Below, one piece after another: positions 4,500 to 28,752 of a DNA stretch of 64,000 nt. The DNA comes from a virus (taxonomy: Duplodnaviria; Caudoviricetes). The stretch lies in IMG/VR virus record IMGVR_UViG_3300005714_000005, positions 1-64,000 of that record; one strand, 5' to 3'. The translations under genes and the position numbers were made by a program. Positions within the stretch are counted from its first letter, which is position 1; each line of letters starts with the position of its first letter. The notes beneath the pieces are model-generated. The model did not search any database. It saw nothing but the letters and a program-made list of their open reading frames with translations, and was not told the origin of the DNA.

Positions 4500-5300
4500 A
4501 TATTGTTCTGATATTGGCATATGATTGTATTGTTAGTGGATCATGAATAGGTAATTTGTTGGTTATGGTAGATAGGTGATTGAGTGGTTAGTGATATGAT
4601 AGGTGTGATTGATATGATAATAGTATGATAGTGGTGATGAAATAGGTGTGATATAGTGGGAAATGGATAGGCGAATAAGAGGAATATAACTATTATATAG
4701 ATAGTAAAATAGTAAAATAAGTGAGTGAATACAGAACAACACACAACTCACAAAAACTCAAAAAATGGCAAAAAATAGCCCCTTTTCTGAGTCCCCCATT
4801 GGTTGCGACAATATGTATTATAGAAACCAATGGGGGGTATATTTCCATATTTTAGGGGGTTTTATCCTTGAAAAATTGTCGTAACACTCCCATTTTCACA
4901 CCAACTCAATTTTCAATCAATCCCACTCAATCCCATCTATCCATTTCATTAAACTCCCACAATACTAACGTTCTACCAACATTTCAACTCAACTTCATAG
5001 AACTCAACCTAACTAAATCCAACCTAATTTACCAACTATCCATAACTCAATACCAACTAACCTCCATGAAACTATCCACTCAACCTATCAACCTATCTAA
5101 TTTAACCCTTGTTCAGTTCTGAACTTTCGCTTAACTACCCATTTATTTCATTTCAAATATCCTACATTTCAACCTTAAAATCTACCCAATCGCTATTGTT
5201 GCAACTTTCCTATATCCCTTTTCACTTTGATTTACGATAAAACCTTAAATCAATGAATACATGCCTTTCTTGACTTCATATTTTACCCACAAGGGGTAGG
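4500..5300. other. Non-coding strand-skewed region; possible genome end, packaging or terminus region
   Basis: G/T-rich, C-poor 4500-4730 switches to C/A-rich, G-poor 4880-5230; repeated (A/C)ACTCAA; GGGGGTAT motifs. Confidence 0.55.
4801..4828. other. dif-like tyrosine-recombinase site
   Basis: GGTTGCGACAA-TATGTA-TTATAGAAACC (11-6-11) within a 12-bp perfect inverted repeat 4793-4804/4825-4836. Confidence 0.6.
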
Positions 5301-12845: not shown

Positions 12846-15800
12846 ATGGCAAACCTATACAGCATTAGAAAAATAGTGAAAATTCCTAGCTCAATGCTAA
12901 GCGAATCAAATCCCAAGTGGGAATTGCGAGTAAGTTTGCAAGATTTGAAGTCAAACAACCAAATTATTGGTTTGGCTTCATCTTACATTATTAGAACTCT
13001 TGATGTGATTGCAAATAGTAATTACTCAGAGAATTATGTTGTGGAACTAAAACAAAATATTAAGGCATTGTCAAAGGAAAAGACAAATGTAAAAAGTAGA
13101 CAAGAAATGAAAAAGCTAAACGATGAATTGTTTAGACAACTATACATTCCTCATTTATGTTGTATTCACATTGACAAAGGTAGCCATTATGATAGATTGA
13201 ATAAAGGTTTTAGCATTTGTGTTTATGATGAGGAAACTGGGGAAATTCTAAGTGAGGTTAATTTCAAACGTTTCTTATCAACTTCTGCTTCTATTAAGAA
13301 AAATGAAGTATTCTATATAAATGAAGATTACAAAGAAACCTTAATGAAATATGTAGACTGTGAACGTGATGAAACCATTAAATTTGTTCCTGCTAAATTA
13401 AGTGCCTATCAAGCTCTTACGATGAGTAGTAGTAATCCAGTTACGACTCCATATAACGTTTGCGTTGTTAATGATGTTGAAAGAGAGATTATCACACCCG
13501 TCTTAGAACTAGATGACTCTAAACAAGAAGAGCCTATTGTAACTCAAATAGATGACTATAAAATGAACTTAAATTGTAGTGATGGTTTTGGTTTTATTGA
13601 TGAAGAAATGGCTAGTCAATGGGCAGAGGATTTACACCTGGATTATGTTCCTAGCTCATTCATTACTCGTCATGCTTTCTGCAAAGGTGTATTAGCACGT
13701 TTCCCATATAAAGAATTTGCAAAAGAACATAATATAAAAACTATCACTGACATTTGGGGTAAAGTTTGGGATATTGAAGAAGTTGATATAATCTTGACAA
13801 CCTCAATGTTAAAACTAGCTAACTGTTATTCAAGTTGGGATGATTATTATACAAAAACCCAAAAATATTTATACACTTTTAGCGTAACAAAATATACAGC
13901 TAAGACTTTGGATATGGAAAGAACAACCAACTATCAGTTTATTCAGTCTATGGAATGGACAGATGAAGATATTAAAGGTTTCTTAAAACCAAGCCTAGAT
14001 GAAATCAAGGCTATCAAAGGAGCAGATTGGCAACGTTCTCTCGTCTACCTACGAGGTATGAGCCTAAATGAAGATAGCAAGGTGTTGAGAGATGACTACA
14101 CAAGTGCCTTGATGATTGAACCACGAATTATAGAAGATTCATATGTGAGAACTTCAATTAATAATATGATTAAGAAACGTTTAGACGATTGTAAAAAAGG
14201 AACGATTAAAGTCAGAGGAAATTATCAAACGGTTATCATTGACCCAATTCTCCTTGCCCAAAGTATGTTAGGTTTACCATTGAACCCATTGCTAGGTAAA
14301 GGAGAATACTATAGCAACTTTTGGAATCGACTAGGTGTTGATTATGTTGTATCAATGAGAGCGCCACAAGTTTCATACTCAAATATTGCACGAATGAAAC
14401 TAAAGAATACGGAAGAAATGCAAAAATGGTATCGTTATTTGGGCGAAATGTTTATTCTAAATGGTTGTGACGCAACTTGTGCTAGAATGTCAGGATGCGA
14501 CTGCGATAAATAATGTCACATTGTCGCAGTATAAAACGAGGTGAACCTTACCAGGGGTGTGTAACTTGAAGTTATGCTAACGATGGAAGCCCTAACGTGA
14601 AGTCGAGGGTAATATCGTGCCAAGTCCTAGAGATAGGGAAGGTGTAGAGACTATGGGTGATGAATGTAGCCCAGTACAATCACTATTGGTACGTGGTTGG
14701 AAGTGCCTCGCTATCGTAAGATAGAAGAGATAGTCCATTCCCTATGGAAACATAGGGTAGTAAAGGGTGACACAGTATTTAGCACCGATGATAAATATAT
14801 CATTAAAGGAGCTATGCGAGAAGTATTACCTGTTGTTTGTTTACAGAAATCCGCTTCTAAACAAATTTGTGACGAAAATTCATTTATTGAATCCGATAAA
14901 ATCTTAATCAAAGGTACGGTTGAAGATGTTGGTACGGTTACAAATCGTGCAACAAATATTGAATCATTTAAAGCCAACTTCCCAAGAGATAGTAAAGAAT
15001 GGAAAGAACTTGACTATCGTGTTCAAGCGTGTATTGCAATATCACAGAATTCGATTAACTTTTAGTCGAAGTAAAACTCGGTGAACTCACAAATGCGAGG
15101 TGTATAGCCAACGTATAGGATATGTAGGAAATGGCATATAATGGCTATGCTAACAGGGGAACTCCTAACGTAAAGGCGAGGACAATCCTGTGCTAAGTCC
15201 TAGCAATAGGAAAAGTGCAACGACTATCGAAAAGGTATCTTAGGAGAAAAACCTGAGAGAGCAACTGAGTAGAGTACACTCAAGGTGAAATTCCTTGTTT
15301 GGAAGTGCCGAGGTCTTGCATGTTGGTAACAGAAGTGCAAGATATGATATAGTCTACTCTCTATGGAAACATAGAGTGTCAAGGAGATTGTGCAAAGGGA
15401 ATTAAAATCGAATATGGTTTTCCTAAGTCATGGATATTGCAAAAACCAAACATAATTAGCGATAGAGATACAGAAGAAGAAAAACAACGTAAACAATTTT
15501 ATCAAACTCTTGTTTGTGATAAGAAACCGTATTTCTTCATCTATGTGTATGAACATCTGAAGAAAGAATATAACAAATTAAAACGAGATGAAGATAAACG
15601 TTGCTTAAAGGCTTTTGGCAAAACATTGCAAGAAGTATTAGACAATCCTGAAACTCAAGAAGAAAAAGATGCAGTATTCTACTACAATCGTAAAAAGATT
15701 ATTGATGAGTCACCTAGCGTCATGAATAAGATTGCTTGGTTCGTGGAAGAAGAATTTAAAAAATTCTCATTGCCAAAACCCAAAAAGGACGAATACATAG

Positions 15801-20868: not shown

Positions 20869-21504
20869 ATAATTGTCGCTTTTATTCATCGGAGTTTTGG
20901 GAGGTGCTTAAACTGTACCCAAGAGCGAAGTAGGCGTTTAAGCTGAAAAGTTCCTCCGCAACCTACAGGGAAGTGTAAGTCTTAGCTAATTCGGTAGCCC
21001 CGTCTAGTTAAGCAGTCCTTGTTATCAAGTCTTTTTGCAGAGTTAGACGTTTGAAAGAAACTACTGTATAGGATTAATGTGCGTACAGAAAAGTCCGAGG
21101 AAGTGGCAATCCTTATAAACCACTAGATGATTCTTGTCTTAGCCGATACAGACAAGCTAAAAATAAAGAAAGGTCGGCTATCAAATGTAATTGTCATAGA
21201 GCGTGACAACGGTAAAATAAATAAAGCTCAATGGATGAAGCGGATGTGGTGTCTGTCTCATGACGTTGATGTAGTTTTCCTTGTTTGAGGGTGGCTATGG
21301 AGTTCTTTAGGGTGTGTGGTCGCCTGTTTCAAACTAGGAACTGAAGTTCAAAAATATCACATATGTAATAGCAATGCGATAGAAGCTACTATGTAGTCAA
21401 GGAATCGACAGACATTTATATCTTTGGTCAGAAACTAAGGATATTGACCGATAGTCTCGTGAAGTCATAAAACTATAAGCCCATGCGTGGTCGAGACAAA
21501 TTAT
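20869..21504 (+). ncRNA. Large structured ncRNA, ROOL-like
   Basis: ~640 nt with no ORF, GC above background, paired ends (ataattgtc/gacaaattat), many hairpins; GAGCGAAGTA and TGTAAGTCTTAGCT recall ROOL from memory only. Confidence 0.6.
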
Positions 21505-26286: not shown

Positions 26287-27390
26287 GTGATAAATTTGAA
26301 AAGATTATTAGGTATTTGTTTATTGGTATTTGTTGCACTCATTGGGTGTAGCCAAGAGAAAGTTGAAACAATTAAGGTTGGACTTGTTACTGATAGTGGT
26401 TCTATCTCAGACAAGAGTTTTAATCAAGGCTCTTGGGAAGGAGTTCTACAATTCCAAAAAGAAAATGAGAATGTAGAAGTTCAGTATGTACAACCACATG
26501 AAGAAAATTTACAAGACTATATGAATGCTATTGATAATTTAATCTTAGCAGGAAATGAAGTTATCGTTATGCCTGGTTTTAAATTTGAGGAAACAGCAGA
26601 CAAAGTTGCTAAACTCTATCCCGATGTTAAGTTTATTTTAATTGATGGACAACCATCAGAAGACGGAGAATATGTATCTCATGACAATGTTGTTTCTATC
26701 TACTTCAAGGAAAATGAATCAGGTTTCTTAGCAGGTGTAGCTAGTGCATTAGAAACCAAAACCAATGAATTAGCCTTCGTTGGCGGATTTGACATACATT
26801 CAGTTTACAAATTTGGAATTGGTTACTTATCAGGAGTAGCATATGCAAATCAACATTTAGGCACAGAAGCTCAAGTGACAGAATATATCTATGCAGGTTC
26901 ATTTACCGATGTGGATATGGGTAAAGCTGTTGGGGGAGCTATCTATGACAAAGGTGTTGACATCGTATTTCATGCTAGTGGCGGGGTAGGAGTTGGAATC
27001 TTCTCTGAAGCTAAAACTCGTGCAGAAAATGGTGAAAATGTTTATGTCGTAGGTGTAGACGTTGACCAATATTCTGAGGGAGTTATCTCTAATGGTGAAT
27101 CGGTTACTTTAACTTCTGCCATGAAACAATTAGGCGTAGCAGTTAATACTCATCTTCAATATTGGCTAAATGGTGAATTTAAAGGTGGACAAGTTATCAC
27201 TATGGATATTACCCAAAATGCAGTTGGTTTACCTAACAACAATCCTAACCTAAGTGCAAACACTTGCAATAAACTTGAAGAAGTTAAACAATTGTTAAAA
27301 CAAGGTGAAATTAAAGTACCATCAACAAAAGAAGAAACACGAGATTTCTTAGACAAATACAACTACGATTATTCAGATTTAAACTTTTAA
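26287..27390 (+). CDS. BMP-family (PnrA-like) nucleoside-binding lipoprotein
   Basis: Lipobox LIGC; DKSFNQ, E.GFLAG, GVDVDQ, TSAMK. Confidence 0.88.
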   Translation: MINLKRLLGICLLVFVALIGCSQEKVETIKVGLVTDSGSISDKSFNQGSWEGVLQFQKENENVEVQYVQPHEENLQDYMNAIDNLILAGNEVIVMPGFKFEETADKVAKLYPDVKFILIDGQPSEDGEYVSHDNVVSIYFKENESGFLAGVASALETKTNELAFVGGFDIHSVYKFGIGYLSGVAYANQHLGTEAQVTEYIYAGSFTDVDMGKAVGGAIYDKGVDIVFHASGGVGVGIFSEAKTRAENGENVYVVGVDVDQYSEGVISNGESVTLTSAMKQLGVAVNTHLQYWLNGEFKGGQVITMDITQNAVGLPNNNPNLSANTCNKLEEVKQLLKQGEIKVPSTKEETRDFLDKYNYDYSDLNF

Positions 27391-27414
27391 TAATTAAAGA
27401 GAGCCTTTAGGCTT

Positions 27415-27502
27415 TCTAATATCTACGTCATCAACCCTTCATTTTTCATAATTCTCCCCTCCTCATTAAATATGTGATTTACACGATGACGTGGATATTA
27501 GA
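27415..27502 (+). ncRNA. Candidate anti-RBS hairpin sRNA
   Basis: 18-bp stem; loop contains the complement of GAGGAGGGGAGAATT-ATG-AAAAATGAAGGG. Confidence 0.55.
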
Positions 27503-27613
27503 GATTCTAAAATCTCTAAAGTACAATGTTGAATTCTATCAAGTAGATTGCGATAAGTTATCCCAATATATATTGACTTATCACTAAGAATCAGAGGGTG
27601 CGTGCCCTCATAT

Positions 27614-27690
27614 GCTAGTGTAGCTCAGTTGGTAGAGCAATCGCATGGTAAGCGATAGGTCGTGGGTTCAAGCCCCATCATCTAGCACCA
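27614..27690 (+). tRNA. tRNA-Thr(GGU)
   Basis: Cloverleaf; anticodon arm ATCGC-ATGGTAA-GCGAT; TTCAAGC T loop; encoded CCA. Confidence 0.9.
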
Positions 27691-27756
27691 TATATAATAC
27701 CGAAAACTGGATTTGAAAGAGTTGCCAGTATAAAGATTGAGACTCGTAGAAAGGGA

Positions 27757-28752
27757 ATGATACCTATGAAAAAGATTTATTTAGAAAAGCAATTTATGAA
27801 AGCAACAAACTTGAACAATTACATCATTGGTGAGATTTTGAGCCACAACAAAGATGCAGGAGAGTATCAAATCGAAAAAGAAGATGGCACTATCTTGACA
27901 GTATTTTCACATTCTTTACTAGGGTGGGAAAACTATGATGAGCGACCTAATCGAGCTTTTGATAATGATAAATTAAATAAAATCACCAATAAGCCAACAC
28001 TACAACCAAAAGGCAAAGTTATCTATGCGGTAGATATTTGTCGCAGTAATCATGGAACAGACGTAGCAGGTTTTACCGTTTCGACTGTCATGCAAGATGG
28101 AACTATTGTAGTACATTTTACAGATAATTTAAGAGGAAGTTATAAAGGTATCGCAGAGACAATACTTAAATATATTGATAAAAACCATGATTTTGGTCGT
28201 GAGGCAGAATTGCGAGTTAATACCGTAGGGCTAGGTAAAGGAATTCTTGATTACTTAGAAGATTGCCCTATACCAGTCAAGATGTGTGGAATTGACGAAG
28301 TGAAACAAGCACATTCAACATTAAGAGAAAAAATTTATCAAGAGGAAATGATTATTAATGAAACTCTAAAAGAAACATTAGAAAATCTTGATAATAAAGT
28401 TTTTATTTCTAAAGACGGTTGTAAAGTTTTACTTGAACAACATGAATCAAATATTGAACAATATGCTTTATTTAGTAGCCTACTAATGACTTGTCATGAT
28501 GGTGGTAAATTCTTATACGAAAATGAATTTGAGCTTTGGATTGAAAAAACTTCGCTAAATCAATCAAGCTCTCTGATAGAAATTTATCACTTGATGTTAA
28601 GAGATAACAAAACGAGAGAAGAAGAGTGTGTCACTTCAAGTCAAAAGCGTTACGAAATAGAAAACACGATGAACTTTATGGTTAAAGCATTTGGTTTAGC
28701 AAACAAGAAAGCAAAAGTACATATCGGAATCAAAGAAGAGTCTACTAAGTAG
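27757..28752 (+). CDS. Protein with a TerL-like RNase H nuclease domain
   Basis: IYAVDICRS and VNTVGLGKGILDYL parallel TerL YISIDVARS and VDINGLGKGLMDYI. Confidence 0.6.
   Translation: MIPMKKIYLEKQFMKATNLNNYIIGEILSHNKDAGEYQIEKEDGTILTVFSHSLLGWENYDERPNRAFDNDKLNKITNKPTLQPKGKVIYAVDICRSNHGTDVAGFTVSTVMQDGTIVVHFTDNLRGSYKGIAETILKYIDKNHDFGREAELRVNTVGLGKGILDYLEDCPIPVKMCGIDEVKQAHSTLREKIYQEEMIINETLKETLENLDNKVFISKDGCKVLLEQHESNIEQYALFSSLLMTCHDGGKFLYENEFELWIEKTSLNQSSSLIEIYHLMLRDNKTREEECVTSSQKRYEIENTMNFMVKAFGLANKKAKVHIGIKEESTK

Follow-up and report, generated by a model that had tools for sequence, protein, structure and literature searches.

A conserved candidate structured RNA with a C-rich loop upstream of the late operon in SPbeta-like phages

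We describe a hairpin lying between the nucleotide-metabolism genes and the late operon of a large SPbeta-like phage, which comparative evidence indicates to be a conserved, single-copy structured RNA of the plus strand. Its long helix has been maintained through extensive replacement of the underlying sequence, and it closes a large loop that is poor in G, rich in C and predicted to be exposed. We posit, with a probability of roughly one half, that the element might be a small RNA processed from a phage transcript, whose loop would serve as a generic anti-ribosome-binding-site, much as in the small RNAs with C-rich regions known from Firmicutes.

The hairpin and its locus

The stretch of DNA analyzed here (hereinafter the window) comprises the first 64 kb of a 105,750-bp IMG/VR phage record (G000), which is estimated to be 68% complete. 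Apart from ORFs nested in a longer plus-strand one, every window ORF of at least 90 codons is on the plus strand. The element occupies a 223-nt gap between a gene for a Bmp/PnrA-like lipoprotein, which closes a nucleotide-metabolism block after the ribonucleotide reductase genes, and a tRNA-Thr(GGU) gene (Table 1). It begins 8 nt past the stop codon of the Bmp gene, while the tRNA is followed by a gene of 331 codons and then by homologs of YonJ and YonG of SPbeta.

Table 1. Coordinates of the element and of the features flanking it in the window
Feature	Position	Strand	Basis or remark
Bmp/PnrA-like lipoprotein gene	26287..27390	+	Pfam PF02608, E = 2.5e-64
Outer 5-nt segment AGAGA	27398..27402	+	Pairs with TCTCT 27513-27517 in the MFE fold (RNAfold)
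Helix, 5′ strand	27406..27432	+	27406-27411 and 27413-27432 paired, C27412 unpaired; RNAalifold consensus
Loop, 52 nt, G-poor, C/U-rich	27433..27484	+	Composition, predicted accessibility, motif alignment
Motif A, CCCTT	27435-27439	+	In the loop; aligns with the motif of the relatives
Motif B, CAT..CTCCCCTCCTC	27447-27464	+	Complement of SD plus ATG; aligns with the relatives
Helix, 3′ strand	27485..27511	+	27485-27504 and 27506-27511 paired, T27505 unpaired; RNAalifold consensus
Outer TCTCT segment	27513..27517	+	Partner of 27398-27402 in the RNAfold MFE structure
Variable cargo slot, element to late leader	about 27518..27702	+	Contents differ among strains and relatives
tRNA-Thr(GGU)	27614-27690	+	In the cargo slot
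Conserved leader, ~65 nt	27703..27765	+	Directly 5′ of the first late gene (27757-28752); right border of the locus

As described in the initial annotation, positions 27415-27432 and 27485-27502 pair as an 18-bp stem, with 17 Watson–Crick pairs and one T/G pair, around a spacer of 52 nt. Read on the minus strand, this spacer indeed contains a Shine–Dalgarno (SD) sequence and a start codon, GGAGG..N..ATG AAA AAT GAA GGG TTG ATG ACG TAG, the latter opening an ORF of eight codons. These 18 pairs are the uppermost of a helix of 27 bp, which, with the outer extension, reaches about 32 bp in the window. In a repeat search the arms lengthen to 33 nt with 82% complementarity, and we estimate from base composition that about 0.004 such repeats would be expected by chance per 64-kb window. 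The plus-strand fold of the intergenic gap has a z-score of −5.8, with none of 200 shuffles folding as well, and the corresponding minus-strand fold a z-score of −1.9.

The small flanking hairpins that had been reported are likewise present, as alternative pairings of the helix ends, and so is the tRNA downstream. The outer AGAGA can form the 5′ half of a small local hairpin just 3′ of the Bmp stop codon, and the TCTCT the 3′ half of another at 27503-27517. In the related phages discussed below, the AGAGA segment is present where a protein gene precedes the element and absent where a tRNA does so (L038, L058); the right hairpin is not kept in L058/G001 and is therefore not essential. Thus, with the left hairpin absent after a tRNA and the right one lost in G001, it is the extended helix that emerges as the conserved feature. 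A plus-strand ORF of 37 codons (27474-27587), which starts with a GTG inside the loop and crosses the right arm, is absent in the relatives and is probably spurious.

The slot between the element and the late leader carries variable cargo. In metagenome contigs from some near-identical strains, position 27516 is joined to 27705 via eight other letters and the tRNA is absent; the slots of the relatives hold other tRNAs, a degenerate tRNA, an sRNA-like unit or an HNH-type ORF, and almost nothing in L002. The degenerate tRNA (L004, 3863-3928) is called by Rfam at 45 bits and not by ARAGORN, and the sRNA-like unit, found in L006 (730-930) and L010 (3830-3960), has a perfect TTGACA-17-TATAAT sigma-A promoter and an end resembling an intrinsic terminator. 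The leader on the right border is near-identical in all the relatives, while the encoded protein is just 39–55% identical (95% in the closest relative, L005). It has a TATAAA..GAGAC stretch that bears a loose likeness to the sequence upstream of SPbeta yonK, and is a candidate for a YonO-type late promoter or leader.

Conservation among related phages

The contigs of relatives were reached via homologs of the 331-codon protein in metagenome assemblies and show the same gene order. The same helix is present at the same genomic site in seven further lineages of related SPbeta-like phages (orthologous copies in L002/L003, L004, L037, L006, L010-L012, L038/L041 and L058/G001), making eight lineages in all, several of them close to one another. 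G001, an IMG/VR record of 120,832 bp, came from a search with a degenerate pattern of the right arm, which yielded this one further copy. In all the relatives the element lies downstream of a Bmp-like gene, with a 102-codon ORF or a tRNA intervening in some lineages, and upstream of the near-invariant leader; the Bmp gene sits at the same position in L002, L004, L010 and G001. Most lineages have a protein gene rather than a tRNA before the element. In L038 it fills a gap (215-355) in a plus-strand tRNA array, between tRNAs at 139-211 and 355-428, and in G001 it begins right after a tRNA-Arg. Its length varies from 114 to 157 nt, and in all eight lineages the C-rich strand is the gene strand.

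Other searches for relatives were unproductive: INPHARED phage records gave matches through the tRNA alone, single-protein scans of viral contigs returned no close relative, exact element patterns had no match in viral or metagenome contigs, and the 18-mer of the first small hairpin gave only chance matches in genome and metagenome contigs. Searches of bacterial species genomes and JGI metagenomes yielded no copy of the element.

We evaluated the helix in an alignment (A1) of ten copies from seven lineages. The RNAalifold consensus comprises 27 pairs, 12 of which have changed on both sides, and standard pairs make up 96.3% of the cells. Not one of 500 shuffles reached this degree of pairing and covariation, and controls with slid partners were about 41% paired. 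In L038 and L058, nearly all of the stem sequence has been replaced and the helix kept.

Composition of the loop

Across the lineages the loop measures 39–81 nt and is predicted to be unpaired. G makes up 2.5–12% of it and C 25–36%, compared to 19.5% G and 14% C for the plus strand overall; of the 50 nt in the trimmed loop of the window (alignment columns 38-120), 14 are C and 2 are G. Two loop motifs align among the lineages, a 5′ one of the CCCC(U)U type and a 3′ one of the CAUA(C/AU)UCUCC(U)CC type, corresponding to motifs A and B of the window. Their predicted probability of being unpaired is 0.76–0.89 in the window and 0.6–1.0 over all lineages. The core of motif B is almost unchanged in L004, L006 and L010 despite their differing stems.

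The reading of the loop as an antisense copy of a translation start finds partial support. On the minus strand, an SD-N(4-9)-ATG arrangement is found in six of six loop types, in three non-homologous arrangements, with a chance of 6–18% by composition for each. Hence, we take the antisense start to be a recurrent design rather than an accident of one phage. The codons for MKNEG, which the initial annotation had made part of the signal, are not conserved: after the ATG the relatives read MIIRG, MKINKG, MNEL*, MFE* or M*, and near-identical strains in metagenome contigs carry 1-nt indels in the C runs of the loop. What the related phages retain is an exposed, pyrimidine-rich loop with the SD-spacer-ATG complement, in front of a codon part that varies.

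L038 excepted, a perfect SD is bound equally well by the real loops and by shuffled ones of matching composition, and thus the anti-SD property is a matter of composition. Against the set of all phage gene starts, pairing is slightly stronger for the loop of the window (mean −16.6 kcal/mol) than for shuffled loops (−14.6 ± 0.8 kcal/mol). The exposed pyrimidine-rich loop looks like a generic anti-ribosome-binding-site. We also considered mimicry of the 16S 3′ tail, which was not above what composition gives, and pairing with the phage's own late leader, which was no better than that of shuffled loops.

A possible processed small RNA

The features on which a functional proposal can draw directly are the conservation, the covariation, the folded strand, the position, the copy number, and the composition and predicted accessibility of the loop. 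The combination of a duplex of the RNase III type, placement in a tRNA slot and accessible C-rich motifs leads us to read the element as a processed small RNA. In every lineage it sits at the boundary of the nucleotide-metabolism genes, at their Bmp-like end, with a cargo slot of tRNAs or small RNAs, which in turn precedes the conserved leader of a YonJ/YonG-type late operon in SPbeta-like gut phages. Scans of the window, L002, L004, L006, L010 and L038 found neither a promoter nor an intrinsic terminator of its own, which suggests that it is part of a longer plus-strand transcript, presumably made by read-through. Among RNA sequencing runs, none was found to contain the sequence. The element follows the Bmp stop codon closely or directly adjoins a tRNA, and no U-tract terminator comes after it. 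An intrinsic terminator as the identity of the hairpin itself was rejected, none being detected, with a loop of this size and a sequence 3′ of the helix that is not U-rich.

Release would most likely proceed via RNase III cutting of the long duplex. The 27-bp helix is long enough for an RNase III substrate, for which a duplex of at least about two helical turns is expected; a search for an RNase III encoded by the phage itself returned none. The tRNA-slot placement suggests that tRNA processing may also release the element, with RNase P and RNase Z freeing it where it is flanked by tRNAs. The freed hairpin would then show two C-rich motifs able to pair with purine-rich ribosome-binding regions, covering the SD and often the AUG, and might act on many starts rather than on one chosen gene. 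Small RNAs that act in trans are usually equipped with a promoter and a terminator of their own, and the element has neither. In Bacillus subtilis, long intramolecular duplexes are cut by RNase III, and their distal box is enriched in U–G wobbles (PMC11780869). C-rich regions are what RoxS, FsrA and CsfG use to engage their targets, and in one of the mapped cases RoxS pairs across a ribosome-binding site (RBS) (PMC8216469).

An unlikely alternative is that the element is a processing and stability module only: an RNase III cut would divide the transcript into the upstream mRNA on one side and the tRNA with the late RNA on the other, leaving a protective 3′ hairpin, with the loop having no function in trans. 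Precedents for such a module are found in T7 and SP82, with their RNase III sites, and in T4, whose tRNA precursors are processed by RNase III. It is consistent with a 27-bp duplex placed between cistrons of one transcription direction, with the absence of an own promoter or terminator and of a specific target in our searches, and with the conserved wobble pairs, which fit the RNase III motif of PMC11780869. It leaves unexplained why the loops are always G-poor and C-rich, why motif B is near-unchanged where the stems have diverged, and why SD-spacer-ATG recurs. A pure processing site would have no need of a conserved C-rich loop.

More doubtful is the idea that the long stem is the scaffold of a generic anti-start RNA, combining anti-SD and anti-AUG, which is freed from the tRNA and early transcript and damps initiation on mRNAs with a strong SD, be they of the host or from the early genes of the phage. 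Such an RNA would be the counterpart of the early shut-off of the T4 RegB type.

Were the element made and processed as a small RNA in the way posited above, it would add a conserved, covariation-supported ncRNA family in the little-studied large SPbeta-like gut phages, and provide a phage-borne case of the C-rich-loop regulators that have until now been known chiefly in the host Firmicutes. Its fixed place at the early/late border, beside the cargo slot, offers an annotation landmark for these phages and hints at a role of RNA processing in keeping their expression modules apart. The recurrent anti-SD/anti-AUG layout provides a concrete hypothesis for translational control by phage RNA; the element is not a demonstrated new mechanism.

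The folded strand

The single T/G pair of the 18-bp stem is a G.U in plus-strand RNA and an A.C in minus-strand RNA. Over the whole alignment, plus-strand RNA has G.U at nine pair columns, two of which (columns 15-143 and 18-140, in the lower part of the helix) are conserved in eight of ten rows, and A.C at three, two of them terminal. The wobble pairs being G.U on the plus strand, the plus-strand RNA is indicated as the folded molecule. Its fold is 3–7 kcal/mol more stable than that of the minus strand in every lineage but one. A weak sigma-A-like promoter on the minus strand, whose −10 (TAGAAT) directly precedes the stem, scores high enough to pass the scan threshold in two cases, the window and L002, and none was found in L004, L006, L010 or L038. 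Together, the wobbles, the fold stability, the tRNA-array setting and the sparse minus-strand promoters favor a plus-strand read-through RNA. The stem-loop of the initial annotation is no chance hairpin but a conserved structured RNA element, better supported as folded on the plus strand and lacking a promoter or terminator of its own.

These data also bear on the converse possibility, more doubtful still than the anti-start scaffold, of a functional minus-strand RNA. Its hairpin loop would present a real RBS and start for a mini-ORF of no fixed sequence, and would serve as a ribosome-loading 5′ stabilizer or as a G-rich sponge of host C-rich small RNAs. RosA has G-rich regions and a 7-codon ORF and sponges C-rich small RNAs (PMC8216469). 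A good SD at 4–9 nt from an ATG in every loop type would be explained just as simply by a true minus-strand start as by an antisense one; the weak promoter in the window and L002 fits with this, and the first small hairpin could serve as a two-way terminator. What argues against it, besides a wobble count of nine columns to three in favor of the plus strand, the weaker minus fold and the patchy promoter, is that the ORFs opened by these ATGs span 8, 1, 25, 25, 45, 4, 4, 3 and 3 codons in different frames, with no conserved peptide or frame among them. Moreover, the neighboring genes and tRNAs are all on the plus strand, and the elements of L038 and G001 sit in a plus-strand tRNA array.

Readings at the level of DNA

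The element could in principle act as DNA, namely as a miniature transposable element, an invertible switch, or a cruciform or hairpin protein site (e.g., a YonO-type promoter or an origin), which we regard as very improbable. With 114–157 bp and terminal inverted repeats of 27 bp, it resembles MITEs such as the Correia elements of Neisseria, which have 105–155 bp, terminal inverted repeats of about 26 bp and a hairpin in mRNA. Correia element transcripts are cut by RNase III. Unlike these, the element is single-copy and syntenic, shows no target-site duplication in the sequence, and did not turn up in bacterial genomes; pattern scans testing for a MITE or Correia-like repeat in the genome, metagenome and viral collections returned only chance matches or one orthologous copy. 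Inversion is disfavored by the one orientation in all eight lineages and by the absence of strand-switch joints in the contigs of four metagenomes, where contigs can miss rare forms. G.T wobbles are tolerated in single-stranded DNA too, and the location at the head of the late region would suit a protein site, the YonO promoter being not known (PMC5467207). Against this stand the spacer, which goes down to 39 nt, the position of the SPbeta packaging site elsewhere (bioRxiv 10.1101/2021.11.22.469490), and the absence of a homolog upstream of SPbeta yonK by our covariance model. Inverton, MITE, terminator, attP or pac site and small-protein gene were all rejected as identities of the element.

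Searches for targets, further copies and RNA families

The initial annotation viewed the hairpin as the clearest member of a proposed system of guide loops and took its target to be probably a host gene or a site elsewhere in the phage. A covariance model of the element (R1) finds one copy in each of the two phage records that were searched whole for targets, G000 and G001 (68% and 78% complete), its E-values being rough, and has no match in SPbeta or Enterococcus phage EF1. With one copy per genome, a system of homologous guide loops is not supported.

The absence of a matching start in the window, noted at the outset, extends to the whole 105,750-bp record, in which no start resembles the loop complement even at 8 mismatches in 32. 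Likewise, G001 (121 kb) has no start with the loop 14-mer at one mismatch or fewer, and L051 has no complementary start. No specific target was found elsewhere in these records. In L050, from the L002 phage, 14 nt of the loop match the RBS of a folD-like gene exactly; the match amounts to AAGGAG-N-GTGA, a pattern shared by several gene starts of these phages, and this pattern is a textbook extended SD. A stem-protected antisense to the RBS of a single MKNEG gene, of host or phage, has in its favor this match and the exact complementarity of the loop to a plausible start region, and is the least probable of all the readings given the empty target searches in G000, G001 and L051, the generic nature of the L050 match, the codon part that is neither conserved nor free of indels between close strains, and the absence of the exact 20-mer of the loop from viral contigs.

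Rfam searches at E-values up to 5–10 placed no RsaE or related family over the element; its sole family matches there were spurious ones of miRNA precursors to the long hairpin. A relationship to Y RNA/YrlA was rejected, the single match scoring 18 bits against a gathering score of 69 and lying over the tRNA region instead of the element. TROVE (Ro) domains are absent from G000 and G001.

Likeness to known RNAs

A close parallel for the small-RNA reading is with the C-rich-region small RNAs of Firmicutes (RoxS/RsaE, FsrA and CsfG; PMC8216469, PMC6158497), with which the element has in common single-stranded CCCC/CUCC motifs able to pair with a G-rich SD, a structured scaffold and a low-GC Gram-positive setting. 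It differs from them in being phage-borne, in having no Rfam match and no promoter or terminator of its own, and, as against the RoxS/RsaE type, in placing both motifs within a single, very large loop that a 27-bp helix closes.

As a long, near-perfect intercistronic duplex of one direction, with wobbles and with conservation among related phages, the element is akin to the R sites of T7, the sites in SP82 early RNA and the RNase III substrates of B. subtilis described in PMC11780869. In contrast to the T7 sites, its loop is far larger and has conserved C-rich motifs that would be unneeded for the presumed cleavage. It is also reminiscent of T4 RNAs C and D (mentioned in PMC9697503), non-tRNA structured RNAs of about 120–140 nt in a same-strand phage tRNA array; the present element mostly follows a protein gene.

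In terms of position, a counterpart is the SPbeta ncRNA upstream of yonK (PMC5467207), likewise a C/U-rich structured RNA just before YonJ/YonG late genes. A C/U-rich, structured region of SPbetaL3 upstream of yonK (L043, 2207-2557), in which a closing stem of 16 bp encloses CUCC and CCCCUU stretches, probably corresponds to this unannotated ncRNA. The two differ in that R1 does not match the SPbeta RNA, the order of the motifs is not the same, and the SPbeta RNA lies inside the late leader, whereas the element lies upstream of the leader and the cargo slot.

Other features of these phages

Several further features were observed in the course of the analysis. In the window, two stretches, one GT-rich (~4510-4700) and the other CA-rich and poor in G (~4880-5250), resemble a pair of long, imperfect inverted repeats, between which lies a perfect 12-bp palindrome (4793-4804 / 4825-4836); the whole (~4510-5250) might serve as an origin or a packaging site, or else form a large structured RNA. 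The Rfam 6A RNA (RF02925) scores above its gathering threshold in the window (21186-21236) and in L002 (752-802), and just below it in L004 (746-796; 40.7 versus 41.2 bits). L002 additionally has a weak match to "drum RNA" at 858-963. In the L002 phage, PAPS-reductase-like and FolD-like (THF dehydrogenase/cyclohydrolase) genes follow the YonB-type structural genes (L050, 17722-20066) and are auxiliary metabolic genes inside the late region. Group I intron matches are seen in late genes of the relatives (L006, 5544-5762; L002, 8506-8663) and, in the window, in the polymerase region (15046-15376); the L002 match reaches 34.4 bits against a gathering score of 50. Homing endonuclease genes of the HNH, LAGLIDADG and GIY-YIG types are frequent in these phages.
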